A stretch of 64,000 nucleotides of DNA from Vicinamibacteria bacterium (lineage in GTDB: Bacteria > Acidobacteriota > Vicinamibacteria > Marinacidobacterales > Marinacidobacteraceae): NCBI GenBank assembly GCA_965115855.1, contig OZ220470.1:1743385-1807384 (forward strand). Direction: 5' to 3'. Shown here in pieces: positions 505 through 57,688 of the stretch. The notes beneath the pieces are model-generated. The model saw nothing but the letters and a program-made list of their open reading frames with translations, was not told where the DNA came from and searched no databases. A program made the translations under genes and the position numbers. How positions within the stretch are numbered: position 1 is the stretch's first letter; each line of letters opens with the position of its first letter.

Positions 505-516
505 CTTCGCCGCATC

Positions 517-2904: not shown

Positions 2905-2980
2905 CCCGCGGCCATCGAAGACGGACGCGATGTGCCCCGGGCGGATCGGGCGCGTCCCGCTGGCGGCGCCGGCGCCCATC

Positions 2981-5392: not shown

Positions 5393-5639
5393 CCCGCCTT
5401 CGCTGATCGGGGCCCCGTCCCGGGATGGCCCTCCATCCCGACGCCCCGGGCGGGTCCCTCCGGGCGACCAGGGGCGAGCACACCTTCCGGGCGGACCGAT
5501 CCGGATCACCGGCTCTCCCAACCACCATGCGGCGCCGGCCCGCCACTGGATTCGCGGCGACGGCGCCGAAGCGGGGCGCCGGGCTCCCGGGAAAGCGAAA
5601 GCTGCAGTCCTGGTCCGTCGCTTGCATGGGATGCCCGCC

Positions 5640-7997: not shown

Positions 7998-8274
7998 CCC
8001 GCCGTTGCTGATCGGGGACCACCGTCTCCGGAGTGGACTCCACCCCGCGATCCACCCTTGGCGTACCGGGCGCGTCCTTCCGGAAGACTCCGGGCAACCA
8101 GGGAACGCGCGCGCCTGTCGCGCGAACCGATCCGGGCGGCAGCGGACGGCGCATTTTCCGAAGCAGAACCCCGGCGTCGAGCCTGGAAACTCCGGCCCCC
8201 GGTTCAAGACCGCCCCGCCCGGTTGGCCCACGGCTTGCTTTGGTCAGGGAACATCTACACGGAGGTCCCACACG

Positions 8275-10668: not shown

Positions 10669-10813
10669 CCCGCCGCCGTGATCGACCGTCTCCAGGGCGG
10701 GATCGGCGCCCCGCGCCATCCCGGGTGATCGGCGGCGACGAGCTTCCCGGGGAGCGAACGTTCCGTCCCTTGTCTTGCGACAGTCTGGCCCACTGTTTGC
10801 CATTGTGCCCCCC

Positions 10814-17798: not shown

Positions 17799-17811
17799 GT
17801 TCCGGACTCCT

Positions 17812-20800
17812 TCAGTTCTTGGCGCGAATGAGCTCGATGTCGAGACCGAGACTCTGCAGTTCCGCCATCAGTACCTTGAATGACGCCGGCACTTCGGGTG
17901 CGTATCCGGTGTCGCCCTTGACAATGGCTTCGTAGACCCGGGCCCGACCCCGAACATCGTCGGACTTCACGGTGAGAATTTCCTGGAGGGTATGCGCCGC
18001 TCCATAGGCTTCAATGGCCCACACTTCCATCTCGCCGAAACGCTGCCCCCCGAACTGGGCCTTCCCGCCAAGCGGCTGCTGGGTGATCAGGCTGTACGGT
18101 CCGATGCTCCGGGCGTGCATCTTGTCATCCACCAGATGACCGAGTTTCAGCATGTAGATGTAGCCCACGGTAACCGGCTGCTCGAACGGCTCGCCGGTGC
18201 GTCCGTCGTAGAGTTCCGTCTTCCCCTCGTCAAGGACGTTGGGCCGGAATGCCTGCGTCTTGCGGGCTACTTCGTTTGCCTCGTCCAGGAGCCCGCGGAT
18301 GTCGTCTTCGCGGGCGCCGTCGAAAACAGGCGTTGCGAAGCTCCGGCCCAGGACCTTGGCAACCCATCCGAGATGGGTTTCGAGAACCTGACCGATATTC
18401 ATGCGCGAGGGAACGCCCAACGGATTGAGCACGATGTCCACCGGCGTACCATCGGGCAGGTACGGAAGGTCCTCCATGGGGACGATCTTCGCAATGACAC
18501 CCTTGTTGCCATGGCGCCCGGCCATCTTGTCGCCCACGCTCAGCTTGCGCTTCATGGCGATGTAGACCTTCACCATCTTGATTACGCCGGGGGGGAGGTC
18601 GTCGCCCTGGGACGCGATGTCCTTCTGCTCCTGGCAACGCACATCCAGAAGCTCGAGCTGCTCCTCGGTCTTCTCGTGGATTTCCTGGATCTCCTCCCGC
18701 ACTTCGGAACCAAGGTCGGTCTCGAGCAGGGGAACGAAATCCATCTTTTCCTCGAGCAGCGATCGGGTGAGGCGGGTTCCCTTCGGGATTTCCACCTCGT
18801 TGATCGCCGGATTCATGCAATCCTCGACCAGCTTCGCACCGATCATGCGGCGCACGATCCGCTTGTCGGCCTCCTCCTTGAGAATCCGGGCCTCGTCCTG
18901 GTGATCGCGGTCGATCGCGGCCACATCCTCTTCTTCGATTTCGAGGGCGCGCTGATCCTTGTCGGCATCCTTGCGGTGGAAGACCCGGACATCCACGACC
19001 ACGCCCTCCACGCCGGAAGGACACTTGAGCGAGGAGTTCTTCACATCGCCGGCCTTGTCACCAAAGATGGCGCGAAGCAACTTCTCTTCGGGGGTGAGCT
19101 GGGTCTCCGCCTTCGGGGTCACGCGACCCACCAGAATGTCTCCCGGCGAAACCCGCGCTCCGATCCGGACGATGCCGGACTCGTCGAGGTGCCGCAGGAA
19201 GGTCTCGGCGACATTGGGGACTTCGCGGGTGATGGTCTCCGGCCCCAGCTTGGTGTCGCGAGCCTGGACCGAATGCTCTTCGATGTGAATCGAGGTGTAC
19301 ACATCGTCCTGAACCAGCCGCTCCGACACGACGATGGCGTCTTCGAAGTTGTATCCGCGCCAAGGCATAAAGGCCACCAGCACATTGCGTCCGAGCGCCA
19401 GTTCCCCCTGGTCGGTGCAGGGGCCGTCGGCGATGACCTGCCGCTTCGTCACCCGGTCTCCAACCCCCACGATCACCTTCTGGTTGATCGCGGTGTTCTG
19501 GTTCGAGCGGCGGAATTTCTTGAGCCGGTAGATGCTGGCGCCGATATCCACCTCGCCATCTTCGTCGACGTCGCGCCGAACGATGATCCGCCGGCCATCC
19601 ACCGTGTCCACAATGCCGTTATCCCGGCTCACGATGACCGATCCCGAATCGCGGGCGGTCACGTGCTCCATGCCGGTACCCACCAGCGGCGCTTCGGAGT
19701 GAATCAGGGGCACCGCCTGGCGCTGCATGTTGGAACCCATCAGCGCCCGGTTGGCGTCATCGTTTTCGAGGAAGGGAACCAGGGAAGCCGCCACCGAGAC
19801 AATCTGCCTCGGCGAAACATCGATGAACTCCACGCGCTCCCGAGGCGACGGGACAAACTCGCCTTCGTGCCGACAGTTGACCCACTCGTCCAGCAGCTCG
19901 CCACCCGCGCCGACCCGGGCGTTGGCCTGGGCGATGGTATGGCGTTCCTCCTCGAGCGCGGACAGGTAGAACGCATGCGGCGTCAGCGCCGGCTGCCGTT
20001 TCCTCTTGCCGAGCCGCGACACCACCTTGTCCGCTTCCCCGCGGCTCAGTACCGCGCCCTTATCGAGGCTGGTGTCTCCCGGATCCTCCACCCGAACGTA
20101 GTCCACGATCCGACCGCCCTCCACCTTGCGGTAGGGGCTCTGGATGAAACCGTAGTCGTCGATCTTCGCGTAGCAGGAAAGGGAGCTGATCAGTCCGATG
20201 TTCGGACCCTCCGGGGTCTCGATCGGGCAGATGCGCCCATAGTGGGTGGCATGAACGTCGCGCACGTCGAACTTCGCCCGGTCGCGTGAAAGACCGCCAG
20301 GACCGAGCGCCGAGAGCCGCCGCTTGTGGGTGATCTCCGACAGCGGATTGGTCTGCTCCATGAACTGGGAGAGCTGGGATGCCCCGAAGAACTCGCGCAC
20401 CGCCGCCGACACCGGCTTCGCGTTGATCAGGTCCCGCGGCATCGCCGTGGTCATCTCCTGATACACATTCATCTTCTCGCGGATCGCTCGCTCCATCCGC
20501 ACCAGGCCGAGACGGAACTGGTTCTCGAGCAGTTCGCCAACCGACCGAACCCGCCGGTTGCCGAGGTGATCGATGTCGTCGGCTCGATACCCGGTCTCGC
20601 CCTGGCTGAGTCGGAGCAGGTACTGCAACACATTGATGAAGTCATCCTCGGTCAGCGTGGTCTGACGCGGGTCCATCGAACATTTGAGCTTGGTGGCCAA
20701 CTTGCGCCGACCGACGCGGGAGAAGTCGTACTTCTGTTCGTTGAAGAACAGGTTGCGCAACAGGGTGCGGGAACTCTCGACTGTGGGTTGATCCCCCGGA

Positions 20801-22035
20801 CGCTGCCGCCGGTACAACTCGACCAAGGCGCCCTCCACGCTCTCCGCGTTCGGGGTCTCCCCGCCTCGCAGGCGGGTCAGGGGATCCTTGGCGAGGGTCT
20901 CGGCAACATAGGGGCCCACCGGATCCACATGGGGCACGATCACCGGCAGGGTGTCGAGACCATGCAGCTCGGTCAGCACTTCGGCGGTAATCGCCGTATT
21001 CGCCGGAATCTCCTCGCCGGTGTCCGGCACCGTGACCGGTCGCGCCAGCCGGAAGCCTCCGAGCGCTTCGACCTGGAAATCGAGATGGCTCGGCGCCTTG
21101 CGGTCCAGAATCCGAAGCTCCCGGGAACCGATGCGCCGGGATCCCTTGACCAGGACCTCGTCGCCCGACTGCAGGTCACGCTCGATGCGCTGGTCGCGCA
21201 GCAGCGTCTTCAAGTCATCGGTGTAGGGAATACGGAGCCCGGTGGAAGTGATCTCCGCCTCCTGAATGGTGTAGAAACGCTCGATGATCGTCTCGGTCTT
21301 CCCGAGTCCCAACGCCCGCAGCAGAACGGTGCCGGGAAATCGCTTCTTGCGGTCGATGCGGACTTGCAGCATCCCCTTGGCATCAGTCTCGAATTCCAGC
21401 CACGACCCCCGGTAGGGCACGACCTGGGCCACATGGACGTCACGTTCCGGATGGCTGAAGAACACACCCGGCGAGCGATGGAGCTGCGAGACAACCACCC
21501 GCTCGGTACCGTTGATGATGAAGGTGCCGTTCTCGGTCATCAGCGGGATGTCACCGAAGAAGACCTCCTCCTCCTTGATGTCATGGATGGACCGCTGATT
21601 GGTCTCCGCATCCCGGTCCCATACGGTCAAGCGGATCTTCACCCGCAGCGGCACGCCGAAGGTCTTTCCCCGCTGCTGGCACTGTTCGACATCGTGTTCG
21701 ACCTTGAGGTGGACCCGATCCCCGCAGTAACCACAGACGGAATCCTGTTCCGCATGGTGGATCCCCTCCAGATCCCCGCAACTGCAAGCCCAGCTCCCCA
21801 CCGAGTACTCGAGAAAATCCAGTTCGCAGTTGTCGCGGAAATCCTTGATCGGGAAGATGGACTGGAAGACCGCCTGGAGACCGATCTCCTCCCGATCCGC
21901 GGGCTGGACGTCCTTCTGGAGGAACCGCTCGTAGGACCGGTGCTGGACCTCGATCAGGTCCGGCAACGGAATGGAGGCGTGTATACGGGAAAAGGAGTGC
22001 CGCTCCCGTACGGTTGCGGAATCGCTGATCAACAT
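17812..22035 (-). CDS. rpoB: DNA-directed RNA polymerase subunit beta
   Basis: Start taken at [31 protein letters not shown] (aligns with E. coli rpoB N-term) inside ORF 17812..22131; conserved rpoB blocks throughout. Confidence 0.95.
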
Positions 22036-22204
22036 GGAAAACACCGCGGACGGACATTTCCGGGCCGGAATTCCAGCCTGGACACGCCCCCGGAAGACAC
22101 CCGGCGCCGGGCGCCCGCCATCAGCAGGCACCCGGCCGCCGGAGGAAGAAGGAAGACCCGTCGGATCCGGGAAAAGGCCACAGCCACCAAATCGTTACTG
22201 CGAC

Positions 22205-36890: not shown

Positions 36891-36972
36891 GAGGGGCCCC
36901 TGGAACGAGTAACGGGGACTGCGGCGGGACCCGCTCACCGGCTCGACCCGTTTCCCCTTCGCCCCGGCGAGG

Positions 36973-37044
36973 CTGGGGCGGAAGGATTCGAACCCTCGTA
37001 AACCGGAACCAAAACCCGGCGCCTGACCGCTCGGCCACGCCCCA
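36973..37044 (-). tRNA. tRNA-Gln (anticodon TTG)
   Basis: Rev-comp TGGGGCGTGGCCGAGCGGTCAGGCGCCGGGTTTTGGTTCCGGTTTACGAGGGTTCGAATCCTTCCGCCCCAG; sits between ispE and prs. Confidence 0.9.
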
Positions 37045-42344: not shown

Positions 42345-42901
42345 CAGTCCCGATTCCCGGGACGGGGAGGCGGGGCGGGACCGCCCCCCTTGCCGCAAGA
42401 GAAGGCCCCGGGACCCTTGATCCGACCAAAAGGAGTCAGATCAACAGAGGCTCCGTTCTTCTACCTGGTGGCAACCGTGCACTTGGCGAAGTTGACGATT
42501 CTCCGCGCCTTGCCGTTCATGGGGTCCGGTGGATGGGACGTCATCAGACCCCGGGCATCCCGTTCGCAACCGATACACGGTACGCGCCGTCTCGCAACCG
42601 AACATCAGGTCCGCAAAGTGGAGTCGCAGTCCCTCTCCCGTTCGGCATTCCGGATCTCGTCATCCGGGTCATTGTCGTGGTTCATGCCCTGGTCGGCGTC
42701 ATCCGGCGAGGGGTAGTAGTCCGCGTTTCCACCGGAGAACCCGACGGTCCACCCCCGATCCTGACCCGGAGGTGCGGAGGGATCCCGCGGGACGCGCCGC
42801 TTCTCGTCGGAAACGCACTCGCGAACGGGCCGGAAGAGAGCAGGCTGTCCCGGGTGCTCGGCGACCAGCGGTGCTGCCGGTTCCGGTCTTCGTGATGGCT
42901 G

Positions 42902-43201
42902 GTGGCGCTCTTCGTCATCGTTCTCACCGAACTGGCGTCCGATCCGGCCTCCACCGCGATGATCCTCCCGATCCTCGCGGCGGTGGCCGCGGAAACCGGT
43001 ATCCCCCCGCTTCTGCTGCTGGTCCCGGCCACGGTGACGGCGTCGTGCGCGTTTATGCTCCCGGCGGCAACGCCACCCAACGCCATCGTCTTCGGGACCG
43101 GCCTCACCATCCCGCAACCGATCCGCGCCGGCGTGGGGGCCAACCTGATCGGCGCCGCGCTCGCTACCGTGTTCCGGGTCCCGCTGGTGTTCGGAGGCTG
43201 A
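42902..43201 (+). pseudogene. C-terminal ~100-aa remnant of a DASS/ArsB-superfamily anion transporter (truncated; no upstream partner)
   Basis: ...TAMILPILAAVAAETGIPPLLLLVPATVTASCAFMLPAATPPNAIVFGTGLTIPQPIRAGVGANLIGA... matches the last two TM helices of SLC13/DASS permeases; upstream 500 bp carries no matching N-terminal coding in any frame. Confidence 0.45.
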
Positions 43202-43225
43202 CCCGCGACTCCTGACAAGAAACGA

Positions 43226-43951
43226 ATGGAAGATCGATTCACTTCCCGGCTCTGGGCCGGGATCGTTCCGCTCTACGCGGAAATCCTCCGGCATCCCTTC
43301 CTGACGGGCCTCGCCGACGGCACGCTGGACCGGAACGTGTTCCGGTTCTATGTAATCGAGGATGCGCTCTACCTCCACGACTACGCCCGCGCCCTCGCCA
43401 TCCTGGGCGGGAAGGCTCCCCACCCGGACCTTACTGCCACACTCTGCGGCGATGCGGTGGCCACCGTGGAAGCCGAGCGGCAGCAGCTCGGACAATTCCT
43501 CGAGGAACTCGGCGGGGGCCGCGAAGACCTCTTCGGTCGCGTGCCCGCCCCCACCAATCTCGCCTACACCAGCTTCCTCCTCGCGCAGGTGCATGCGCAG
43601 CCGTTCCATGAAGGGCTCGCCGCCGTGCTGCCGTGTTACTGGATCTATGCCGAAGTGGGCAAGGAACTCCTCGCCCGGCCGCCGTCGCCCGACCCACTCT
43701 ACCGCCGCTGGATCGAGAGCTACGGAAGCGCGGAGTACGATGCGGTGGTACGGCGCGTCCTCGATCTGACCGACGACGTTGCGGCGCACCTCGAAGACGC
43801 CGTCAAGTCCCGGATGGCCCGGCACTTCGAACTGACGGCACGCTACGAATGGATGTTCTGGGACATGGCCTGCCGGCAAGAGGCCTGGCCCGTCGACTCC
43901 GATCGACGGGCAAACGCAGTTTGCGCCCACAAGGGCCCGGGAACCGGGTGA
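43226..43951 (+). CDS. tenA: TenA/thiaminase II family protein (aminopyrimidine aminohydrolase)
   Basis: 241 aa; ...HPFLTGLADGTLDRNVFRFYVIEDALYLHDYARAL... and ...YTSFLLAQ...LPCYWIYAEVGKEL... TenA_C signatures. Confidence 0.85.
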   Translation: MEDRFTSRLWAGIVPLYAEILRHPFLTGLADGTLDRNVFRFYVIEDALYLHDYARALAILGGKAPHPDLTATLCGDAVATVEAERQQLGQFLEELGGGREDLFGRVPAPTNLAYTSFLLAQVHAQPFHEGLAAVLPCYWIYAEVGKELLARPPSPDPLYRRWIESYGSAEYDAVVRRVLDLTDDVAAHLEDAVKSRMARHFELTARYEWMFWDMACRQEAWPVDSDRRANAVCAHKGPGTG

Positions 43952-44107
43952 TGCGGCAAATCGCCTGGTGACAGGCTGTTTGCCCGCCGATCCGGGCGGT
44001 TTCCCTCAACGGCGCTCAATGACCATGTCTTTCGTGGTGGGGGGCGATCACGCGGGGTACGAAACACCACGCAACGCACCAGGGTGGACCCCGCCCATTC
44101 CCGTCGG

Positions 44108-46591: not shown

Positions 46592-47283
46592 GCGCGGCGC
46601 CTCCCGCGGCCCGAGCCGAGGCGGCGGAAGCGGCGGAGAAACGGCGGGCCCGGCGGATTTCCCGGACCCTGGCCAGGGAGTATCCGGACGCCGACTGCGC
46701 CCTCCGTCACGAATCGGCGCTTCAGCTGCTGGTCGCCACCATCCTCTCCGCCCAGTGCACGGACAAGCGGGTAAACCTGGTCACCCCCGCGCTTTTCGCC
46801 CGCTATCCCGACGCCGGCGCCTTCGCCGAGGCGCGCGCCGAAGAGCTTGAGAAGCTGATCCACTCGACGGGTTTTTTCCGGAACAAGGCGCGGTCCATCG
46901 TCGGTGCCTGCCAACGCATCCGCGACCACTTCGGCGGGAAGGTCCCGGGCCGGATGGAGGACCTGCTGTCGCTCCCCGGCGTGGCGCGGAAGACTGCCAA
47001 TGTGGTTCTCGGAGTCTGGTTCGGCAAGGCCGAGGGCGTGGTGGTGGATACCCACGTCTTCCGCATCGCCCACCGACTGGGACTGGCGCCGAAGAAGAAC
47101 CCGGCCCGAACCGAGGCGCGGCTGATGGCGCTGCTCCCCCGCACCCACTGGGTGGCGTTCAGCCACCGGATCATCCTTCATGGCCGGAGCGTCTGCCCCG
47201 CCCGGAAGCCCCGTTGCGGCGCGTGCGCGTTGCGACGGGATTGCCCGCGCCAGGGAGTCGAGGAACCGGATCCGGCGGCATGA
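46588..47283 (+). CDS. nth: Endonuclease III (DNA glycosylase/AP lyase)
   Basis: GTGA overlap with thiG stop; HhH-GPD ...[13 protein letters not shown]..., FeS cluster [17 protein letters not shown]. Confidence 0.93.
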
Positions 47284-48323
47284 TGCGTCTCGGGCTGTAC
47301 CTGGGCTACCTGCGGAAGGGCGGAGCGAACCCGGTACGCTCGGCAGTGGCGGCGGAAAAGGCCGGCTTCGACTCGGTGTGGGTCGCCGAGGCGTGGGGCG
47401 CCGACGCGGTCTCGGTCCTCGGTTTCCTCGGTGCTGCCACCGAACGGATCGGCCTCGGGACATCCATCCTTCCCATCGGCTCCCGCACCCCGGCCCTTCT
47501 CGCTCAGACGGCGGCGACCCTCGACCACCTGAGCGGCGGGAGGTTCCTCCTCGGACTCGGCGTTTCCGGCCCGCAGGTCATGGAGGGATGGCACGGCGTA
47601 CCCTTCCGGCATCCCGGAATCCGACTGCTGGAAACCGTCGAGATCGTCCGTCGCGCGCTCCGGCGGGAGACTCCGCTCACCTATTCGGGCCGGCATCACC
47701 AGCTCCCGCTGCCAGGCGGAACCGGACTCGGCAAGGCGCTGAAGCCGGGATTCCCGGCTCCGGTGCGCGAGATTCCCATCCACCTCGCGACCATCGGACC
47801 GCGGAACACCGAGATCGCCGCCCGGATCGGCGACGGATGGCTGCCCTTCTTTTTCTCCCCGGAGCGGTGCGCAGCGGTCTTCGGTCCGGCGCTCGAAGCC
47901 GGGCGCGCCGCCCGCGAGCGCCCGGAACCCCTCGATGTGGCGCCGCTGGTTTCCGCTGCGGTCGGGAACGACATTCCGGCGCTCCGGGATCGCATGCGGC
48001 CGAACATCGCCTTTTACGTCGGCGGCATGGGCGCGCGCCAAAAGAACTTCTATCGGGACCTGGTCGATGGTTATGGCTTTCCCGAGGAAGCCGGCCGTAT
48101 CCAGGACCTGTTCCTTTCCGGCCGACGACGGGAGGCCGAGTCGGCCGTACCGGACCAACTGGTGGATGAGGTCTCGCTGGTGGGGCCGCCGGGGCGCCTC
48201 GCCGAACGGGTGGCGGCGTACCGGGAGGCGGGCGTCACTACCCTGATCGTTTCGCTCCCACCGGCCGACGACGGGGCGCCCGATCCGAAGGACCTCGAGA
48301 CCCTGCGGCGAATCTGCTCCTGA
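47280..48323 (+). CDS. Luciferase-like monooxygenase (LLM) family flavin/F420-dependent oxidoreductase
   Basis: ATGA overlap with nth stop; [10 protein letters not shown]...GFDSVWVAEAWGADAVSVLGFLGAATERIGLGTSILPIGSRTPALLAQ... TIM-barrel LLM pattern. Confidence 0.8.
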   Translation: MMRLGLYLGYLRKGGANPVRSAVAAEKAGFDSVWVAEAWGADAVSVLGFLGAATERIGLGTSILPIGSRTPALLAQTAATLDHLSGGRFLLGLGVSGPQVMEGWHGVPFRHPGIRLLETVEIVRRALRRETPLTYSGRHHQLPLPGGTGLGKALKPGFPAPVREIPIHLATIGPRNTEIAARIGDGWLPFFFSPERCAAVFGPALEAGRAARERPEPLDVAPLVSAAVGNDIPALRDRMRPNIAFYVGGMGARQKNFYRDLVDGYGFPEEAGRIQDLFLSGRRREAESAVPDQLVDEVSLVGPPGRLAERVAAYREAGVTTLIVSLPPADDGAPDPKDLETLRRICS

Positions 48324-49528
48324 CCAGCGCACCCGCCGTCGGTGGAGGACGCCGGGCACTGCCGCCAGTGCCCACGCTGGCAGGGGCCTCGGCGCCGCCG
48401 CCGAACAACGCGGCGCCACCGTCATACCGCAGCGAGTCGGGCCGTTCTGTTGTTCGAACGCTCCGGAACGTCGTTGGCGGCGAGTTTGGCATGGATCGGA
48501 GTACGCGACCGAAACAGCAAATTGCGGGCAAGTGATGGAGGCCGCGCGCCCCCGGACCGGGGAACTGACACGACAGTTCCGGGATTCCGAGTACTGCACC
48601 CGCGAGAACCGGTCAACGATGCGGGTGATCGGCAAGGCCGAGTACCTTCCCCGGGTTACGGGAACCCCCGGTTCCGGGTTTACCAACCTGAAGCGCAACT
48701 CGACACCCGGTGTCCTTGCGAGGATCGGTACCACGCCCGCTGCGGACATGGGGACTCGGATCACCGACGTCTTCCGACACGTCTTGCGCAATCTCGAACG
48801 CATTCGCCTTGGGCGAGACCCGGGTGGCGACGGCGCCATCCCGCCCCGAAGCATCATCTCTCCCGACACCGAGGAGGCACGTCTGCGCCCCGGTTCTGAT
48901 CAACACGCGAAACACTACGAAACACGTTTCCTGACCATCCGGCTCCTCTCAATCCACATTTTCCACCATCCCAAGGTACTTCAACCGGAAAACGGAACTC
49001 CGAAACCTGCAATGGGGCACTCTCCACCAGGTTAATGGAGGCGGGTCTGATACTTGGCGTATCAAAGCCGGACAGAAACAGGTTCGCAACGCCGCGGGAT
49101 GTCCAAAGCGATCCGCTCGTCATCCGCATCCGTCTCTCGCAAGGCCAGGTTGCGATAGTTCCCTGCCTCCCGACCCTCCGGATAAATCACCGGTTCGGAC
49201 TACCGTATTCCATCGGCCAAGACCTTCTTCAGACTCTCCGCCAGAAACTCGAGACCTGTCGCCGGACACTCTCCGCCGCTCATCCAGCAATTCGCGCGAG
49301 GCGCGGTCGGCACACTTCATGGCCATTCGTCAACTCCTTGCAAAACGCACCGCACGTCCCCACCCCATCCCGAGCTTCAAACAGTTCCCACCGTAAGACC
49401 CGCAATCTCACGCATCCCCCCCAACATCACCCCGGCTCGCCCACCCACCCACCCTTAAAACAACCACACCCGTCGTGTAGTTGCTGCCGCGAGGCGGCGC
49501 CGTGCCAATCCCTGATCGAAACTCCTAC

Positions 49529-49535
49529 AGGAGGT
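49529..49535 (+). promoter_or_regulatory. Strong Shine-Dalgarno (AGGAGGT) 7 nt upstream of lipoprotein A start codon
   Basis: ctacAGGAGGTaggtgatATGaaa. Confidence 0.6.
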
Positions 49536-49542
49536 AGGTGAT

Positions 49543-51846
49543 ATGAAACTGAATCCCCCCAATGGGCGGCACGCCATCAGTCGCTGGCGCCCGGTCTCGG
49601 TGGGCCTCGCGTTGGTCTTGGGAATCGGTCTGCTCGCAGCTTGTGGCGACGACGATCCTGCCCCCGCTCCGGCCCCCGCTCCGGCCCCCGCGCCAGCTCC
49701 CGCTCCAACTCCAGAGCCAGAACCGGAACCCAAACCCGAACCCAAACCCGAACCCAAACCCGAACCCAAACCAGAGCCGGAACCAGAACCCGATCCCTTC
49801 GTCCTCTCAATGGCTCCCCCCAAAGCCGACGCGGACAAAGACTGCATGGGGTACGCTTTCTGCCCAGATGAAGAAACTGACGCCAAAAAAGCCATGGCCT
49901 CTCCAAACTCCATGATGACCGTCTCCTCCTCTCACGACGCCGTCATCACCCCCCTCTGGATGGATTCAGAACCCAACGGTATCGGTGTCTCCGCAGCCGA
50001 CGACAACATGCCCTTCAAAAATGTCGACTGGAACGCCATGCAATCCACCGTCGCAAACATGGGCGTCTCTTTCAAAGCCGTCAGAGTCTCCATCGGCGCT
50101 AACCAAGAAAAAATCCCAACCTCCGAAATCCTCTACATCACCTGCGGCCCATTCGCCTGCTCCGACGCCGCAGCCGAAAAACCCCAAGCTCCCGAAATCT
50201 CCGCCGAATCCACCAACATCTGCGCCAACTGGGACCCCGATCTTACTCTACAAGTCGGTATGATCGATAATGATACGAGAAGTACGTCGGGAGCTTGGTA
50301 TACCAACAAGATTATCCCAGCGTATGATTCGCTCGGCGGTACTAGAAGTGATGCCACGCATTACGATTTTTTGGATATAGTGTCAACAACAAGAACAACA
50401 AATGCAAGTATCTGGTACGCTGATGACGGAATCGATATCGGATGGTCGTCGACTTCCGATGTGGACATGAAAGTCAAACATGTCTTCGGAAACTACAGCG
50501 TCATGGGACCAGATGCGAATAAAGGTACGAACAAACCTCTCAATGTCGATCTTAAAGCGGAGAATGTTTCCTACGCCCCCGCCGTTCAAACAACCAAATT
50601 GACTGTTGATGCTGCTGATAGAACCGCAACTACTTCAGATAAAGTTGACAAACTGTCCGAGGCCTGTGTCGATGCAACCAAATACTCAGGCGTTAGCGGT
50701 TCAGCCCAAAGACCAAACAATTGTTTCCGCCTTCGAGTTTCCGGCACGGAAACTGCCGGGTTTGTAGGAACCCCGAGATTGACGAACCACCTCTCCAGTT
50801 ATAGTGTGGAAGTCTCTCCCAAGGACCCCATGCTCTGGGGCAAGGTCGCATGGAAGGATGGTCCGCTCAAGGATCTCAAATGCGAAACCATGCGTTTCGC
50901 CGCTGCCGACCAAATTGATGTCTGCGAACTCTTCGAAGAGGAGGTCGATCACGCTCTGTCAGGCGGTTGGGACGACGTCGAGGTGAAGGGTAGTAAGCGT
51001 AAGCTCGTCAATCCACGTGATGGTATGGGAGTAGAGCATCCCTATGCCGGTCTCGTGCGAGTTTTTCTCAAAAACGCATCAAGCGTAAAACCTCGGCACT
51101 TCCGGAGACTCTGGTTCGACGACAACATGGATGGAAGCATCGTGGATAAAGCAGAGACATTTGGATACCAATATGTGTTGAATTTCGACGAAGAAGCAAC
51201 CGAACGAAGTGGCAATAACCCCGCACACGGCAAAGAGGGGAGTGGCTGGGATATAAAGCCAATATCATTTGGTCAGACATCGGCTCTCGAACCGGTTAGA
51301 CTTTCTCGGAGAGCGAGCGATCTGTACAATTATAATGATTACACTGAAACCCCAGGCTCCGTGTCAAATGACGGAGACTACATTAAGGCCTTTAATGTCA
51401 ATGCCATCTGGACACCAGTAGTCGACCAAAATCTTCTTCCCCTTCCTAAATACGGCGACTTTGGGAAGGTTGATGTTGCAAAGACTACAGTAAACGACGC
51501 CTCCACAACCAGGTCAGTTGAAGCTGCTGTAGATGGAGACGGCATAGCCGATAACTACTACGGCATTCCCGCCAGATGCTCGGATGAAGACGGCGGCAAG
51601 GGGTGCGATGCGAAGTGGGAAGAGGACTTCGAGATTCTCTTTTCGGATCTCATCTTCGGCTGCGAAACAACGCACGCCGTGACCATCAGTTGTGAATGGG
51701 ATGCCCAAGGTACATTCGGGAGGCCCCCGGAGAAGCATGCAATAAAGGACGGTACAACGGGTGGTGACGACAGCGTAGCAGATTACGAATACGCGAGACT
51801 TCTTATCAAAGAGATAGATCATTTCGCCAAGTGCACCGTGGAATAG
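49543..51846 (+). CDS. Variable surface lipoprotein A: signal peptide + lipobox (LLAAC), Pro-rich PAPAP/KPEP linker, Cys-containing domain of unknown family (expression copy)
   Basis: 767 aa; MKLNPPNGRHAISRWRPVSVGLALVLGIGLLAACGDDD...; low-GC (~45%) body vs ~70% host; ends ...HFAKCTVE; intact RBS. Confidence 0.75.
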   Translation: MKLNPPNGRHAISRWRPVSVGLALVLGIGLLAACGDDDPAPAPAPAPAPAPAPAPTPEPEPEPKPEPKPEPKPEPKPEPEPEPDPFVLSMAPPKADADKDCMGYAFCPDEETDAKKAMASPNSMMTVSSSHDAVITPLWMDSEPNGIGVSAADDNMPFKNVDWNAMQSTVANMGVSFKAVRVSIGANQEKIPTSEILYITCGPFACSDAAAEKPQAPEISAESTNICANWDPDLTLQVGMIDNDTRSTSGAWYTNKIIPAYDSLGGTRSDATHYDFLDIVSTTRTTNASIWYADDGIDIGWSSTSDVDMKVKHVFGNYSVMGPDANKGTNKPLNVDLKAENVSYAPAVQTTKLTVDAADRTATTSDKVDKLSEACVDATKYSGVSGSAQRPNNCFRLRVSGTETAGFVGTPRLTNHLSSYSVEVSPKDPMLWGKVAWKDGPLKDLKCETMRFAAADQIDVCELFEEEVDHALSGGWDDVEVKGSKRKLVNPRDGMGVEHPYAGLVRVFLKNASSVKPRHFRRLWFDDNMDGSIVDKAETFGYQYVLNFDEEATERSGNNPAHGKEGSGWDIKPISFGQTSALEPVRLSRRASDLYNYNDYTETPGSVSNDGDYIKAFNVNAIWTPVVDQNLLPLPKYGDFGKVDVAKTTVNDASTTRSVEAAVDGDGIADNYYGIPARCSDEDGGKGCDAKWEEDFEILFSDLIFGCETTHAVTISCEWDAQGTFGRPPEKHAIKDGTTGGDDSVADYEYARLLIKEIDHFAKCTVE
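49726..49773 (+). repeat. 12-nt tandem repeat (gaacccaaaccc; KPEP) x4 in linker of lipoprotein A; 2-3 copies in mirrored position of copy B
   Basis: Direct reading of sequence; in-frame copy-number difference between paralogs. Confidence 0.8.
49743..50274 (+). repeat. Left arm of perfect 532-bp inverted repeat (identical to 54150..54681 rev-comp) inside 5' part of lipoprotein A
   Basis: Identical six-frame ORF translations on opposite strands (49966..50187 vs 54237..54458; 49985..50263 vs 54161..54439; coordinate sums constant 104424) plus manual rev-comp comparison to boundaries. Confidence 0.9.
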
Positions 51847-51885
51847 GACCTACTTCCTGTTGATCTGATCGCTGTCGATCAGTCC

Positions 51886-51924
51886 AGAACCCCGGGGCTA
51901 TTCGGCCCCGGGGTTCTTCATTTG
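51886..51924 (+). terminator. Rho-independent terminator downstream of lipoprotein A (13-bp GC stem agaaccccggggc/gccccggggttct, then ttcattt)
   Basis: Perfect hairpin immediately after stop codon 51846. Confidence 0.7.
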
Positions 51925-52176
51925 CACATAAACCGGCGCGTGACAGCGACGCAAACCGACACGCTTCACAAGTTTGTTCAATTTGGGTGTTCGAAACCCG
52001 CTTCGCGGGCGTATCCCGGATCGGGTTCCCGTGGTTCGACGGACCTGACCTCTTCCCGTTGACGAACTGAGGTGATCTCGGGTCCTTGGACAGTTTGAGG
52101 GCTTGGTCAGGGTGCAAAAGGTCATCCCTTCGTGATCGTCGAATTCGCCCGAACGGGTGAACCCTGGCTTGTTTTC

Positions 52177-52440
52177 TCCGCCGGATCCAGGATCACCGGG
52201 AAAGTCGAATCTCGCGATTGGCTCACGACCTTACGACAAGAGTCCCTCGCCATAGGCTTCGGCGGGCGTCCGCCCTCCGAGGGCCGAGTGCGGGCGCTGG
52301 GTGTTGTAGAACCGCATCCACTCCCCGATCACTCGTTCGGCCGCGAACCCGTCGGCGAGCTCGTGGAGGTACACCGCCTCGTACTTCAGGGACCGCCACA
52401 GCCGTTCGATGAAGATGTTGTCGAGGAGCCGCCCGCGACC
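52177..52440 (-). mobile_element. IS3-family transposase remnant (C-terminal rve/integrase fragment + probable terminal inverted repeat TGAACCCTGGC...), 5'-truncated
   Basis: ORF 52231..52488(-) contains ...LLDNIFIERLWRSLKYEAVYLHELADGFAAERVIGEWMRFYNTQRPHSALGGRTPAEAY (IS3 OrfB C-terminus); only ~65 aa present. Confidence 0.7.
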
Positions 52441-52486
52441 GTCCATTGAGAGCCGGGTACCCGCCGCCGCGTTAGGTTCATGTGCC

Positions 52487-52523
52487 AATGAAGAACCCCG
52501 AGGCCATCCGGCCCCGGGGTTCT
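52487..52523 (-). terminator. Rho-independent terminator downstream of lipoprotein B (mirror of the 51886..51924 hairpin, one mismatch)
   Basis: gaaccccgaggcc-atcc-ggccccggggttc on + strand; followed on minus strand by ttcattgg. Confidence 0.6.
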
Positions 52524-52562
52524 GGACTGATCGACAGTGATCAGGTCAACAGGAGATTGGTT

Positions 52563-54824
52563 CTATTCCACCGTGCACTTGGCAAAGTTGTCAACGTTCG
52601 CGCGACCGGCGATATCAGCCACGCCGAGTTTGCCTTTCACCCTATTGTCGTTCCCAGTTTCCGACGCAGGAGGAAGATTGTTCAACAGGCCTTGGGCATC
52701 CCACTCGCAACTAAGGGTCACCGTACGCGTCGCTTCGCAACCGAAAATGAGATCCGAGAACAGGACCTCGAAGTCCTTTTCGAACTCGGCGTCGCAGGCC
52801 TCATTGCCCGCGTCACCATTGTCGCCTTTGGAGCAGGTGGAGGAACCGGCGGGATAATTGTCGGCCACGCCGTCCGGCTTGGCCAAATCTTTACCATAGA
52901 GATCCACTTTCCCGAAGTCTCCGTAAATGGGCATCATCCCGCCATCCGTGAGTGTCCCCCAAATGAAGTCGATATTCCGATTGTGAAAATACTCGTGATC
53001 GGATGCATTAATACCAGATATCTCGTGGGGGGAGGCGTCTCCACGGTTAACAAACCCGTACAGGTCATGAATAACACGAGCCAAAATGGTACCTCTTGAT
53101 GGGATAGAATCCCTTGCGGATGTAGTACCAGGGGCAGCATCGAAATAACCTAATTCGTTGCTATTTCCCATCACTACCAAACCGTCCTTGAAGTAGTCCA
53201 AACTCTCTTCTTCTCCGTCGTCGGCGGTCGGGTGTTTGAATGCCGCCCCTGCATTGCCTTCTGCTATGCTAGAGCCCCGAGCTTCACTCTGAAGAAGCGT
53301 ATTGGGACCGTCGGCAACCGACCCATCCAAGTTGTCATCGAACCAGAGCCGCTTAAACCGCTTGGGCTTCGGGCGGCCTCCTTTGGGGCCGACCTGCCAA
53401 GTAGCCAGAACAAATCCGCCGTCTGCTCCTTCTACGATACTCCCTCGGTTATTCTCACTATCTGAGTTGCTGTTCGCCGCAATGCGCCGTTTGACATTTA
53501 TCCTGACGTCGCCCCAGCCCTTGGCCAAGGCTGCATCGACCTCGTCTTCCAGGAGTTCGCAGACGTCAACCTGATCGGCAGCGGCGAAGGACATGGACTC
53601 GCACTTCAGGTCCTTGAGCGGACCCTCTTTCCATGTGACTTTGCCCCAGAGCATGGAGTTGGAGTCCTTTGGAGAGACTTCCACGCTGTATCCATCCAAG
53701 TGGTTCGTCGTGCGCGCCCGACCCGGGCCTCTGACAAGACTTTCAGTTCCACCGACGCGGACGCGGAAACACTGGTCCGGTTTTTGGACACCACTGCGCG
53801 AAGAAGAGTAATCGACATCAACGGCGCACGCGTCTTTCAAATTCCCGACTTTTTCCAACACAGGAGTGGCCGGCGTGACCGGCTCCTTGATTTTATCGAC
53901 TTGGATGGCGGGGGCGTATGTGGTCCTGTTGGCAGAGTCGACCGTGAATGGTTTGTTCGTACCTTTTTTCGCATCCGGCCCCATGAAGTTGTAATTACTG
54001 AAAACATGCTTCACGGTCATGTCCACACTGGAGGTCGACACCCAACCGAGATCGATTCCGTCGTCTTCGGCCCAGATGTCTGGATTTGATGGGTTGGCGC
54101 CTAGATCATGAATAGTCCTGTTTTCAAATCTACCTCGCATATCATAGATATCATTATCGATCATACCGACTTGTAGAGTAAGATCGGGGTCCCAGTTGGC
54201 GCAGATGTTGGTGGATTCGGCGGAGATTTCGGGAGCTTGGGGTTTTTCGGCTGCGGCGTCGGAGCAGGCGAATGGGCCGCAGGTGATGTAGAGGATTTCG
54301 GAGGTTGGGATTTTTTCTTGGTTAGCGCCGATGGAGACTCTGACGGCTTTGAAAGAGACGCCCATGTTTGCGACGGTGGATTGCATGGCGTTCCAGTCGA
54401 CATTTTTGAAGGGCATGTTGTCGTCGGCTGCGGAGACACCGATACCGTTGGGTTCTGAATCCATCCAGAGGGGGGTGATGACGGCGTCGTGAGAGGAGGA
54501 GACGGTCATCATGGAGTTTGGAGAGGCCATGGCTTTTTTGGCGTCAGTTTCTTCATCTGGGCAGAAAGCGTACCCCATGCAGTCTTTGTCCGCGTCGGCT
54601 TTGGGGGGAGCCATTGAGAGGACGAAGGGATCGGGTTCTGGTTCCGGCTCTGGTTTGGGTTCGGGTTTGGGTTCGGGTTTGGAGCGGGAGCGGGAGCGGG
54701 AGCCGGGTGGGTGGGTGGGATGGTGGATGCTGATAGCGGAGGCGGCGCGGTACCCGAGGAGACTTGGCGCCCGATTGATCCGTGGGGCCGACGGGCGGTG
54801 TCCGACAAGGGCGCACAGGTTCAC
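52563..54824 (-). CDS. Variable lipoprotein paralog B (5'-truncated/silent cassette candidate): lacks signal peptide; 5' 532 bp identical to copy A, remainder diverged and mosaic
   Basis: 753 aa ORF starting at GTG with non-hydrophobic N-terminus MNLCALVGHRPSAPRINRAPS...; PAPAP linker segment is out of frame with KPEP segment relative to copy A; ends ...NFAKCTVE. Confidence 0.6.
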   Translation of the reverse strand: MNLCALVGHRPSAPRINRAPSLLGYRAASAISIHHPTHPPGSRSRSRSKPEPKPEPKPEPEPEPDPFVLSMAPPKADADKDCMGYAFCPDEETDAKKAMASPNSMMTVSSSHDAVITPLWMDSEPNGIGVSAADDNMPFKNVDWNAMQSTVANMGVSFKAVRVSIGANQEKIPTSEILYITCGPFACSDAAAEKPQAPEISAESTNICANWDPDLTLQVGMIDNDIYDMRGRFENRTIHDLGANPSNPDIWAEDDGIDLGWVSTSSVDMTVKHVFSNYNFMGPDAKKGTNKPFTVDSANRTTYAPAIQVDKIKEPVTPATPVLEKVGNLKDACAVDVDYSSSRSGVQKPDQCFRVRVGGTESLVRGPGRARTTNHLDGYSVEVSPKDSNSMLWGKVTWKEGPLKDLKCESMSFAAADQVDVCELLEDEVDAALAKGWGDVRINVKRRIAANSNSDSENNRGSIVEGADGGFVLATWQVGPKGGRPKPKRFKRLWFDDNLDGSVADGPNTLLQSEARGSSIAEGNAGAAFKHPTADDGEEESLDYFKDGLVVMGNSNELGYFDAAPGTTSARDSIPSRGTILARVIHDLYGFVNRGDASPHEISGINASDHEYFHNRNIDFIWGTLTDGGMMPIYGDFGKVDLYGKDLAKPDGVADNYPAGSSTCSKGDNGDAGNEACDAEFEKDFEVLFSDLIFGCEATRTVTLSCEWDAQGLLNNLPPASETGNDNRVKGKLGVADIAGRANVDNFAKCTVE
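54150..54681 (-). repeat. Right arm of perfect 532-bp inverted repeat (see 49743..50274)
   Basis: As for left arm. Confidence 0.9.
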
Positions 54825-54970
54825 TTGAACGCATCAAGCATCCTGTGCGCGATTGCACGCACACGGACGGGTCGGCGATTTACAAGGAACGGGAATAAAT
54901 ACACGGGCCGGCTTTCACGCGTGTTATCCCAAGTCATTCCAGGCGCGTCTCCGTGCTCCCGGAAACGCGC

Positions 54971-57688
54971 CTATGGCTCGGTGGAACCGTTGGTTCGGTA
55001 TCCCAGGCTGAGGAGGTTGGCGAGCAGTCGGTAGGCGCCCGGCGTTCCCTCCGGGAGCTGGCGCCACAGGCCGAGACCCAGATAGAGCCAGCGACCCTCG
55101 CCGTGACGGATCTCCACGAGGATGCCGCGCTTCTCGCCAGCGTTGTACGGGAAGGGATCCTCCGACGCCAGCAGGTCGATCGCGGCGGGATCGTCGCCGG
55201 TCTCGAGGAAGTAGAGGCCCCGCTCCTGGACCCATCCGTCCCAGTCGGCGGGGCCGATGCGGTTCGGGCCGAGAAAGACCGGATGATCGGGAACCAGGAC
55301 CTGCATGGGCGCATTCTCGTCGGTAATGCGGCCGCGTCCGACCCGAATCGGTGAGGGCGCCCAGGGGCCGGCATTGAACTCGAACTTGTTGTACTGGACG
55401 AGGAGGGTGCCGCCATCCGCCACGAAGTCCAGCAGGCGCTGGTTGTAGGTGCGGAGGTCGGGGCGGGCGAGATAGGCGCGCACGCCGAGCACGATGGTGT
55501 CGAATCGGGAGAGGTCGCCCTCCGCGAGATCCTCCTCATCCAGGAAGGTCAACGAAACGCCCAGTTGGCCGATGGCCTCCGCCACCTCGTCTCCGACGCC
55601 CTCCACCCAGGCGACCTTCACCGGGGCCACCGTCGCGTCCAGAACCCGCGCCAGCGCCTCCGCCGGGCGGAAGCGATACCGGGTCTCGATGTGGTGGTAG
55701 GCGATCGTCTCGACCGTCTCCCCGAAGACCGTGCCGTCCGCCAGCCGGACTTCGGCGGCGAGCCGGTACCCACCATCGGCGACGCCCGCGGGAACCGTGG
55801 CCTCGAAGGCGACGCCCTGCTCTCCGGGGCCGGAAAAACGGAGCGTTGCGGATGCCGGACGCACCTCCCAGCCGGATGGTGCATCAAGACCGACCTCGAC
55901 CTCGGCCTCCTCCACGCTTCGCCAGGTCACCCGCACCGAGAGGGAGCGGGTTCGTTGCCCCCGGGGAAACACCACGATCGGGGGTGTCACCCGAACCGCG
56001 GCAAGCGGCAACACGGAAACCTCCTTCTGCTTCTCGGTTCCCACGAAGGGACCGCCATAGCGATACGCGACCGGCAGGGTGACGCTTGCGGGAATGTCGT
56101 CGGTCTCGAAGTCCACCCGGGCGCGGACCGGGGACGGAGGCGCGGCGGCCCCGAAGAGCGACGGATCGGAAGCGACGAACCGGTCCCGGCCCGGCGCCGC
56201 GTCGAATACCTGCCGACTGAGCGTCGCATCCGCTGCCGCGGTCACCCGGAAGGAGGCGCGGACCGCATCGCCTGTCGCCATCTCCACCGGGAAGTCGGCG
56301 CCGACCACCACCGGTCGCGCCTGCGAACGGGATCCGCGCCCCCGGGCCGGGGGTTGCGCATTCGGCCCGGTCTCCCAGCCGTCCGGGGTCTCTATCGAGA
56401 TCCCGGTCAGCGTCAGCGGTTCCGAACCGCCCGCCTGCACGAAGACCTCGGCCCCGAAGCTTCCCCCCGGAACCACTTCGCCGGCGTCCGCCACCGGATG
56501 CGTCAGCAACCCGTGGGCGAGCGCGAGTGCTTCCTGAATCTGGACTTCCTTGGGGGCGACGCGGTGCCGGATCTCGAGGACGGCGCCCGGATCCAGGTCG
56601 GCGGAGACCTGAAGCACCCGCCGCGCGGCGATCAGGGCTTCCCGGAGCGCCGGGATGGACTCGTGGGGTGATGTGGAGGAAAAGGCCCACTGCGCACCAC
56701 CGACGGCTCGTTCGAGATCGCCGAGAGCCCGCTCGGTGGCGACGACCGCGTCCGGGTCTCCATGCACGAAGGCCCGCAGCCGTTCCAGCCCCACTGGAAT
56801 ACCCGGGAAGAGATCGTTCTCGCCGGTCTCCGAAACCAGATTCCGCATTTCCACCAGGACCGCCGGCCCGGACGCCGGGGCGCCGCGCACCTGTCCCATC
56901 CCCTGACAGCGGTGCGCCGAGCGGGCCTCCTGACCGAGGTCCGCGTATGTCCGCCCGAGCAGCGGATCCCAGATCGCGGTGTCCACCCGCACTACCCGGT
57001 CCCCGGCGACGGTGCCCCCCCCGACGCCCCCCACGAAGAGCTTGAGCGGTTGCCAGGGACGCAAACCGAGTTCCCGATGCTCGGGAAACCGCTCGGCGTC
57101 GCCGGCAGCGTCGAAGGCTTCGATGGTGATCCGCCCGGTCGCCTGGTGGTGCTGGCCGCCTCCCTCGCCCGCGGGTGGGAGGGTCAGGATCACGTCGGGA
57201 CGAAGGGTCCGGATCATCCGCACCACTTCACCGAGCGTTTCCTCGTGGCCCCACTTCTTGAGGGTCTCCTCGACACTGAACGAGTATCCGAAATCGGAGA
57301 CCATCCCGAAGAACTGTTCCACCGCGTCCAGCCGGTGCGAGGTGAGGAGTTCCTCGGTGCGCAGGATCCGGAGGCCGTCAAACAGTTCGGGGCCGATCTC
57401 GTTCTGACCGCCGCCGCCCCGGGTCAGCGTCAGCAGCGAGACCCGGGCCCCCATCCCTCGGGAAAGGCGGGCGTGGAGGGCGTTGTTCTCGTCGTCCGGG
57501 TGGGCCGTGATGGTGAGGACGGAGACGCCGCTTTCGATCTTGCGCAGCTTGAGCCCGAGGCCGGATGCGCCACGATCCTCGGCGAGGGGGCGGAGCTGTG
57601 CAGCGGTCGGAGCGGCAAGCAGCAAGACGAGCAGCGGGGCGGCTGCCGCTAGGACTGCCCGCACTCGGTGCGTGGATGCGGTGATCAT
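54971..57688 (-). CDS. Secreted PIG-L/LmbE-family N-deacetylase fused to large C-terminal domain (905 aa)
   Basis: Signal peptide MITASTHRVRAVLAAAAPLLVLLLAAPTAAQ; ...LTITAHPDDENNALH... PIG-L motif. Confidence 0.75.
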   Translation of the reverse strand: MITASTHRVRAVLAAAAPLLVLLLAAPTAAQLRPLAEDRGASGLGLKLRKIESGVSVLTITAHPDDENNALHARLSRGMGARVSLLTLTRGGGGQNEIGPELFDGLRILRTEELLTSHRLDAVEQFFGMVSDFGYSFSVEETLKKWGHEETLGEVVRMIRTLRPDVILTLPPAGEGGGQHHQATGRITIEAFDAAGDAERFPEHRELGLRPWQPLKLFVGGVGGGTVAGDRVVRVDTAIWDPLLGRTYADLGQEARSAHRCQGMGQVRGAPASGPAVLVEMRNLVSETGENDLFPGIPVGLERLRAFVHGDPDAVVATERALGDLERAVGGAQWAFSSTSPHESIPALREALIAARRVLQVSADLDPGAVLEIRHRVAPKEVQIQEALALAHGLLTHPVADAGEVVPGGSFGAEVFVQAGGSEPLTLTGISIETPDGWETGPNAQPPARGRGSRSQARPVVVGADFPVEMATGDAVRASFRVTAAADATLSRQVFDAAPGRDRFVASDPSLFGAAAPPSPVRARVDFETDDIPASVTLPVAYRYGGPFVGTEKQKEVSVLPLAAVRVTPPIVVFPRGQRTRSLSVRVTWRSVEEAEVEVGLDAPSGWEVRPASATLRFSGPGEQGVAFEATVPAGVADGGYRLAAEVRLADGTVFGETVETIAYHHIETRYRFRPAEALARVLDATVAPVKVAWVEGVGDEVAEAIGQLGVSLTFLDEEDLAEGDLSRFDTIVLGVRAYLARPDLRTYNQRLLDFVADGGTLLVQYNKFEFNAGPWAPSPIRVGRGRITDENAPMQVLVPDHPVFLGPNRIGPADWDGWVQERGLYFLETGDDPAAIDLLASEDPFPYNAGEKRGILVEIRHGEGRWLYLGLGLWRQLPEGTPGAYRLLANLLSLGYRTNGSTEP

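Follow-up and report, generated by a model that had tools for sequence, protein, structure and literature searches.

The window analyzed here, 64,000 nucleotides of contig OZ220470.1 (assembly GCA_965115855.1) from a Vicinamibacteria bacterium, contains a tract of about 6.6 kb at positions 48324-54970 in which two related genes, A and B, face each other between a gene for a luciferase-like monooxygenase (LLM) and a gene for a PIG-L family deacetylase (Table 1). The original prediction described this tract as a low-GC island with two lipoprotein genes, whose variable domains had been acquired horizontally and whose conserved 5' part had then been ameliorated or recombined locally. Gene A is a complete lipoprotein gene. 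Its ATG is preceded by the Shine-Dalgarno (SD) motif GGAGG at 49530-49534, a signal peptide and the lipobox cysteine are encoded at 49543-49644, and the lipobox LLAAC (…GLLAAC; MKLNPPNGRHAISRWRPVSVGLALVLGIGLLAAC) agrees with the pattern [LVI][ASTVI][GAS]C. A linker of Pro, Ala, Glu and Lys, with Ala-Pro, Glu-Pro and Lys-Pro pairs, reaches to ~49791. The conserved N-domain, which lies inside the repeat arm described below, ends in …LQVGMIDND, and the variable region (50276-51846, 520 codons) closes with a Cys-rich conserved end (…CEWDAQG…FAKCTVE). The ribosome-binding site (RBS) and start region of A resemble those of the copies in the closest sequenced relative. The leader upstream of A showed neither codon periodicity nor homology to 65 related loci, and its six-frame translation gave no Pfam match. 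A search of Rfam over 47500-55500 at E <= 1 returned no match, and a sigma-70 promoter scan, uninformative for this phylum, found 0 sites.

Only half of the claim of two lipoprotein genes stands, since gene B has neither a signal peptide nor a lipobox in any frame. No credible start codon or RBS was found for B either, and upstream of its repeat arm a hydrophobic segment or lipobox is absent from all frames as far as the stop codon of PIG-L, a gene on the same strand that ends 146 nt before B begins. An Ala-Pro repeat is present 5' of this arm, out of frame relative to A. This repeat and a 15-nt match, CCCACCCACCCACCC, are all that links the 5' end of B to the region upstream of A; they are suggestive of, and do not demonstrate, an origin of this end by deletion. 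The source gene call for B (protein P0002, an exact match) starts at an internal Met codon. An open frame of 753 codons that lacks expression signals would fit a maintained silent cassette, and it would also fit a very recent truncation.

The sequence between the two genes holds two GC-rich, terminator-like hairpins, one behind each gene, and between them the C-terminal remnant of an IS3-family transposase. The presence of this insertion sequence (IS) fragment, as originally proposed, was confirmed by its Pfam match (Table 1); it is truncated on its 5' side and adjoins the terminator of B. The hairpin (AGAACCCCGGGGC…GCCCCGGGGTTCT; window 51861-51959 and 52475-52586) is also conserved 3' of family genes in distant metagenome-assembled genomes (MAGs), at 5182-5280 of locus L027 and 2109-2207 of locus L028. 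It could serve as a terminator associated with the family or as some other cis element.

Table 1. Coordinates of the features discussed, in window positions.
Feature	Position	Strand	Evidence and remarks
rpoC and rpoB	13461-22194	-	low GC2 (0.41), native GC3 (0.81-0.84)
Frameshifted 3' family remnant, ~85 codons	42475-42730	-	blastn to OZ241856.1 copies: 72% over 268 nt, E = 2e-34
LLM gene, left flank	47214-48323	+	Pfam Bac_luciferase, E = 1.8e-79; native GC3 0.805
Leader 5' of gene A, 1.2 kb	48324-49542		GC 0.625, C-rich towards A; no convincing open reading frame
Gene A, complete lipoprotein, 767 aa	49543-51846	+	open reading frame, translation, composition, homologs
Left arm of 534-nt inverted repeat	49742-50275	+	end of linker and whole conserved N-domain, ends ...MIDND
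3' end of A and terminator-like hairpin (51886-51917)	51823-51934	+	86% inverted repeat of 52475-52586
IS3-family transposase C-terminal remnant, ~70 codons and stop	~52234-52461	-	Pfam rve_3, E = 5e-15; rve_2, E = 0.007
3' end of B and terminator-like hairpin (52492-52523)	52475-52586	-	partner of 51823-51934
Gene B, 753-codon open frame	52563-54824	-	convergent with A; variable region 52563-54148
Right arm of 534-nt inverted repeat	54149-54682	-	repeat search, blastn
PIG-L family deacetylase gene, right flank	54971-57688	-	Pfam PIG-L, E = 6.9e-16; native GC3 0.83

No Pfam or NCBIfam family matched A or B outside the low-complexity linker, and a PDB profile search returned linker and FN3 noise only. 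Among 5.8 G proteins we found 15 true relatives, three of which (P0001, P0002 and P0003) are encoded on the same 3,016,700-bp contig as the window, together with the exact PIG-L protein. P0001 is A-like, with 79% identity in the alignment, and P0003 is B-like with a truncated and frameshifted C-terminus; both were called from internal Met codons and without a signal peptide. The exact 767-aa product of A was missing from a 15-G protein collection in which B, P0001, P0003 and PIG-L of this contig were present, and it is possible that A was missed or given another gene model in the source annotation. When one genome per species was scanned, 61 family loci emerged, nearly all in MAGs labelled Candidatus Marinacidobacterium, Vicinamibacteria or Acidobacteria/Acidobacteriota, and JGI metagenomes contributed 4 further, distant loci, giving ~97 members at 65 loci; viral contigs of IMG/VR held no family members. 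The few members outside Acidobacteriota-type MAGs were labelled only 'bacterium' or SAR202, or lay on unlabelled metagenome contigs. Going by their isolate names, several of the family-bearing MAGs are presumably sponge-derived bins. The protein family is undescribed, and literature searches for Marinacidobacterium and for sponge Acidobacteria with phase variation found no relevant paper. The family appears to be restricted to a group of marine Acidobacteriota and to consist of fast-evolving lipoproteins that are probably exposed on the cell surface.

The closest relative of the window genome is the closed genome OZ241856.1, whose flanking proteins are 82-89% identical (85% for LLM). Its locus L009 is colinear with the window over 36.3-42.3 kb and 44.1-48.26 kb. 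Colinearity stops at ~48258, at the 3' end of LLM; of the borders that a synteny comparison was expected to define, this gave the left one, at the LLM stop, and the PIG-L side sits elsewhere in OZ241856.1. In this sister genome the family numbers at least 31 distinct copies, most of them arranged in tandem and in the same direction, and these served as the control for the similarity between A and B.

Both the repeat search and blastn showed that the two arms of the inverted repeat are 100% identical over 534 nt; the shared block had been noted before, with a length of 532 bp. Past the arm, identity between A and B collapses to 58.9% of alignable columns, with patches of 70-80%, before rising again to 86% over the final codons and hairpin. 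In the sister genome, the nucleotide identity of the N-domain over 465 paralog pairs averaged 0.893 and did not exceed 0.954, compared with 1.000 for A and B. The N-domain peptide is identical in all four copies of this chromosome (A, B, P0001 and P0003), and in all four the border of identity lies where the conserved domain ends. A perfect arm, where sister paralogs reach at most 95.4%, and a border at the domain end are the signature of recent, homology-limited gene conversion. Local recombination of the conserved 5' part, one of the two histories originally suggested for it, is thereby supported, and the comparison of paralogs indicates that the arm is homogenized by gene conversion rather than ameliorated. 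Conversion may be ongoing. A search of JGI metagenomes for the exact 36-nt arm junction gave 0 matches.

Family copies in relatives carry long homopolymer tracts. In OZ241856.1, poly-C runs of 10-31 nt were present in 31 of 32 distinct copies (loci L001-L019 and L023), ~150-200 nt upstream of the match start (~9860-9880 in L006) and, within the signal-peptide region, 9-15 nt behind an ATG that has an SD motif in front of it. Of these tracts, 12 were in frame and 19 out of frame, near the one-third expected under unconstrained slippage, although tract lengths in long-read assemblies are uncertain and the ON/OFF calls therefore provisional. Poly-G or poly-C tracts of 17-31 nt were also found ~740-960 nt upstream of the N-domain in most of loci L038 and L052 (OZ242011.1) and L039, L040, L045, L047, L049 and L050 (OZ251549.1), and L058 (OZ242011.1) has a tract 17 nt upstream of the conserved N-domain. 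Such switches thus seem to be a repeated feature of the family in different species. The corresponding position of gene A has just C6, and every homopolymer in the window is shorter than 10 nt; the slippage mechanism is inoperative at this locus. The pattern suggests that the family forms a phase-variable surface repertoire in the relatives and that the window species has a reduced repertoire, organized differently.

The low GC content of the tract was borne out by the numbers. Its GC fraction is 0.565, as against 0.680 in the remaining 57 kb of the window and a mean of 0.676 (sd 0.023, minimum 0.631) in 6.6-kb windows elsewhere, which corresponds to z = -4.8. The lowest 500-nt windows (0.464-0.536) lie at 50000-52000, where the run of A/T-ending codons quoted in support of the island was located (50270-50302). 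The inner part, 50300-54100, for which a composition indistinguishable from background would have spoken against an island, has a GC of 0.539, and the two genes have third-position GC (GC3) values of 0.51-0.64. By gene, GC3 is 0.556 in A (variable part 0.511) and 0.635 in B (variable part 0.612), and the flanking LLM and PIG-L genes (Table 1) and other plausible real genes of the window (0.80-0.87) show no such shift. About 50% of four-fold degenerate codons end in G or C in gene A compared with ~90% in host genes. The arm and linker had been called GC-richer than the variable parts. This holds for the Pro/Ala/Glu linker (0.69-0.71), whose codons force a high GC content, whereas the arm (0.556) barely exceeds the variable part of B (0.543) and the variable part of A stands at 0.499. 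A milder dip at 13.5-27 kb (0.615-0.637 at 16.5-27 kb) includes rpoC and rpoB and was used as an internal control; since these genes combine a low second-position GC (GC2) with a native GC3, amino-acid composition alone is insufficient to explain the deficit at 50-54 kb. The compositional anomaly at synonymous sites is therefore real.

Comparison with the sister genome separated the low GC content into two layers. In the N-domain, GC at first (GC1), second and third codon positions is 0.584, 0.465 and 0.923 in sister copies and 0.528, 0.453 and 0.677 in the window copies. In the variable part the corresponding values are 0.568, 0.455 and 0.829 in sister copies, 0.543, 0.444 and 0.511 in A, and 0.570, 0.447 and 0.612 in B. 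GC1 and GC2 of A and B (0.54-0.57 and 0.445) therefore match those of sister copies (0.57 and 0.455), and the difference is confined to GC3. The first layer is a family-wide amino-acid composition that lowers GC1 and GC2 and keeps the family 5-8 GC points below its surroundings in every genome. The second is a purely synonymous drop in GC3 that is seen solely in this genome (0.51-0.68 vs 0.83-0.92 in the sister); among the ~97 members GC3 is lowest in the window copies, the others ranging from 0.71 to 0.94. The lowest of these others belongs to a member in a Vicinamibacteria MAG (L030 10200-16200, OZ244068.1) at the start of a ~6-kb region with a GC of 0.56-0.64 (background 0.68-0.71), so that milder low-GC tracts near family members occur elsewhere.

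In both species the N-domain exceeds the variable part in GC3, which makes the GC-richer arm a family trait rather than the result of amelioration. Amelioration of the 5' part also disagrees with base usage at third positions of the arm (C 0.56, G 0.10, A 0.22), which is unlike that of host genes (C 0.43-0.45, G 0.37-0.38). At residues conserved with sister copies, 41-54% of third positions differ, almost all by C>T, G>A or G>C, and each comparison contains only 1-4 AT-to-GC changes. In five flanking orthologs (window 36-48 kb against L009), 23.5% of such sites differ, with 184 GC>AT and 72 AT>GC changes counted from the sister to the window genome, and the window lineage appears to be drifting to lower GC genome-wide.

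A second trace of the family was found between PurH and a TenA-like open reading frame (ORF), where a frameshifted 3' remnant (42475-42730; translation ...FGCETARTV...NFAKCTVA) occupies the position of two intact copies in the sister genome, which shows that the family was lost from its ancestral site here. The remnant has a GC of 0.625 and a third-position GC of 0.76; the GC of the homologous segments is 0.641 in the sister, 0.531 in A and 0.566 in B. A GC-rich remnant beside low-GC3 copies means that two compositionally different family lineages coexist in this genome. As a phylogenetic discriminator the remnant was rejected, being, like the 3' end of B and the sister copies, ~72-73% identical to the others; its composition alone is informative. 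At 42730-44080, where the family copies were lost, inspection of the six-frame translation by eye showed a C-terminal membrane-transporter fragment and the TenA/thiaminase-II-like ORF.

We interpret the low-GC tract as a convergent pair of paralogs, an expression copy and a silent cassette that may exchange sequence, whose multi-copy family of variable surface lipoproteins is confined to one clade, and we judge the chances of this reading to be even. RecA-type gene conversion, recent or ongoing, would preserve the identity of the 5' module. With the arms lying in inverted orientation within convergent genes, one reciprocal exchange between the arms would be enough to turn 50276-54148 around. 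The promoter, signal peptide and N-domain of A would then be fused to the variable domain of B, and the variable domain of A would be left behind the dead 5' end of B. On this model B would serve as a silent cassette, and the locus as a whole would switch the domains of a surface antigen. Several points weigh against it: B may be nothing other than a pseudogene that was truncated recently, the proposed inversion or cassette exchange is read from a single assembly of this species, and none of the neighboring ORFs scanned is a recombinase; homologous inversion needs none, but its absence removes a supporting clue.

It is possible, with a probability somewhat below even, that no switching takes place, that B, P0001 and P0003 are decaying duplicates, and that the perfect arm goes back to a single recent conversion or duplication, the inverted layout being a by-product of an IS3-mediated rearrangement. 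The family is evidently shrinking in this genome, with four copies and a remnant compared with at least 31 copies in the sister, the C-terminus of P0003 is already truncated and frameshifted, and the truncated IS3 element lies exactly between the two genes. Decay does not readily explain that B has stayed open over 753 codons at 55% GC, where by our own estimate ~4% of random codons would be stops, nor that in each of the four copies identity ends exactly where the conserved domain does, as repeated homology-limited exchange predicts.

If the paralog pair does act as expression copy and silent cassette, a further step can be proposed tentatively, and we consider it unlikely in this full form: the species would have replaced ~31 poly-C phase-variable genes by a cassette system, in which one gene, with C6 in place of C10-31, would be locked ON, silent copies truncated at the 5' end would share a homogenized 534-nt module, and variable domains would be swapped through homologous inversion or gene conversion.

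Known variation systems offer partial parallels to such a device. In the sap system of Campylobacter fetus, studied by Dworkin, Tummuru and Blaser, homologs reportedly share a conserved 5' region of ~600 bp followed by divergent 3' regions, and oppositely oriented homologs are said to rearrange RecA-dependently through these long conserved regions around a single expression-competent context. The window locus resembles sap in its long homologous repeats and in a near-identical long 5' block (534 nt at 100%) that gives way to divergent sequence. In sap, however, the invertible element carries the promoter between divergent genes, whereas here the genes are convergent, the segment would carry the variable 3' parts, the lipoprotein belongs to an unrelated family, and switching is a prediction.

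The phage Mu G and P1 C segments, the R64 pilV shufflon and the phase-variable Type I hsdS systems invert at 19-34-bp sites, or short repeats, by means of a dedicated serine or tyrosine recombinase encoded nearby. Like them, the A/B locus has a constant 5' part outside the segment, two alternative 3' parts facing each other inside it, inverted repeats within coding sequence and a second 5' end that is non-functional (A has an SD, an ATG and a signal peptide, B none of these). It differs in the 534-nt length of its repeats and in having no recombinase among the neighboring ORFs scanned. Neisseria pilE/pilS, Borrelia vlsE and Mycoplasma genitalium mgpB/MgPar are silent-cassette gene conversion systems. 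They pair one complete expressed gene with 5'-truncated, promoterless copies in which conserved blocks flank variable sequence, an arrangement that A and B resemble and that P0001 and P0003 may share, and there is evidence of non-reciprocal homogenization; the present genome has only three candidate cassettes, which are nearly full-length, and no G4, cis element or other known initiator. Simple-sequence contingency loci with poly-G/C tracts are established in Campylobacter, Neisseria and Haemophilus (PMC8355987, PMC2831843). They are matched by the poly-C tracts of the family copies in OZ241856.1 and not by gene A or the window, given the absence of long homopolymers there. Overall, the locus seems most like recombinational systems of surface-protein variation, and membership in any named system is not established.

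The origin of the synonymous GC3 drop was weighed separately. The gene lineage may have passed some time in a closely related background of lower GC content, for instance a strain or replicon missing from current sampling, before it took the place of the native GC-rich copies; in our judgement this is the most likely single cause, at about even odds. For such a transfer speak the confinement of the GC3 anomaly to these genes, the left border at the end of synteny, the IS fragment inside the tract and the native-like remnant at 42475-42730. On the other side, no closer homolog or donor emerged from 5.8 G proteins, from 1.84 G cluster representatives, where identity reached at most 40%, or from JGI metagenomes and IMG/VR, and the start region of A is similar to that of sister copies. 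In a neighbor-joining tree of 96 members, moreover, the four copies of the window genome form one clade that is sister to a clade with all OZ241856.1 copies, a topology that matches the species relationship, as vertical descent predicts. An excess of GC-to-AT changes is also present in the flanking orthologs (184 vs 72), so that in-situ drift, exaggerated in fast-evolving genes, is a possible cause.

These last observations lead to the alternative of a shift in situ, which we regard as possible but rather unlikely. Under vertical descent, very fast evolution with AT-biased mutation, perhaps aided by mutagenic repair during repeated recombination, would have removed synonymous G and C while keeping the protein composition. 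The tree that mirrors the species relationship, the missing donor and the weaker bias of flanking orthologs in the same direction all favor this, as do the unchanged GC1 and GC2 and the almost exclusively GC-to-AT or G-to-C nature of third-position changes at conserved residues. It is difficult to reconcile, however, with the 31 distinct full-length sister copies, which are equally divergent from one another and yet have a GC3 of 0.83-0.92, with the third-position GC of 0.76 kept by the neutral remnant at 42.5 kb, and with the lack of a shift in other genes of the window. To our knowledge, no mechanism targets the synonymous sites of one family.

The model that had been put forward originally, a classic island from an unrelated low-GC donor with foreign variable domains and a native or ameliorated 5' part, is very unlikely and is largely refuted by phylogeny and arm composition. 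The tract does share with horizontally acquired islands its compositional deviation (low GC and GC3), the IS remnant and the position at a synteny break. Its dinucleotide delta* of 97, compared with 34 +/- 8 in other windows, seemed to point the same way; family clusters in the sister genome, however, deviate by 70-100 from their own background, so that the oligonucleotide signature, examined here with dinucleotides, does not discriminate and a family-wide deviation is not evidence of transfer. The statement that the island lacks an integrase and a flanking tRNA gene proved correct. No recombinase was detected among the neighboring ORFs scanned (the neighbors identified being housekeeping genes: PurH, SelA, ThiG, an EndoIII-like gene, LLM, PIG-L, an SSF symporter and ClC), the nearest tRNA gene, tRNA-Gln at 36971-37044, is 11 kb away, and no flanking direct repeats were found, all of which is unlike an island. 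Nor were the variable domains alone acquired, because the arm is anomalous as well (GC3 0.68 vs 0.92 for the same domain in the sister) and is unlike the host. The whole gene, including the arm, belongs to a clade-native family without homologs outside the clade or in viral contigs, and its copies group with those of the sister species. With no donor in the collections searched, the claim of horizontal acquisition as such was not upheld: the tract is not a classic mobile island, and a horizontal origin is possible but unproven. The original island label fits only in part.

It is hardly credible that an assembly or polishing artifact homogenized or mis-joined the repeat copies, even though the source is a metagenome-assembled closed chromosome and perfect identity is unusual for the family, since the arm is just 534 nt long with unique sequence on both sides and easily spanned by long reads, its identity borders are sharp and biologically meaningful (linker and end of the conserved domain), the same peptide recurs in four proteins that were called separately, and both ORFs are intact.

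Elsewhere in the window, the plus strand at 505-13153 encodes five consecutive large ORFs (~800-930 aa), each with a Peptidase_S8 subtilase domain, which form a tandem paralog array of secreted-protease-like proteins.

The locus also carries a lesson of method, namely that a low-GC island with an odd signature can be a native hypervariable gene family, and that splitting GC1/GC2 from GC3, together with a paralog control from a sister genome, separates the two. If the interpretation of A and B as expression copy and silent cassette is correct, a non-pathogenic and probably host-associated, presumably sponge-symbiotic, member of the Acidobacteriota would vary a major surface lipoprotein by the strategies of pathogens. 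It would do so with an antigenic-variation-type system built on an undescribed family, in a group for which we found no paper on such a system. The sister species would use slipped-strand switching at dozens of loci, while this genome may use recombinational domain swapping, and the family would make it feasible to compare two ways of varying one protein between closely related genomes. Such systems would imply strong and fluctuating selection at the cell surface, for which phage predation and host phagocytosis or recognition are candidate causes.

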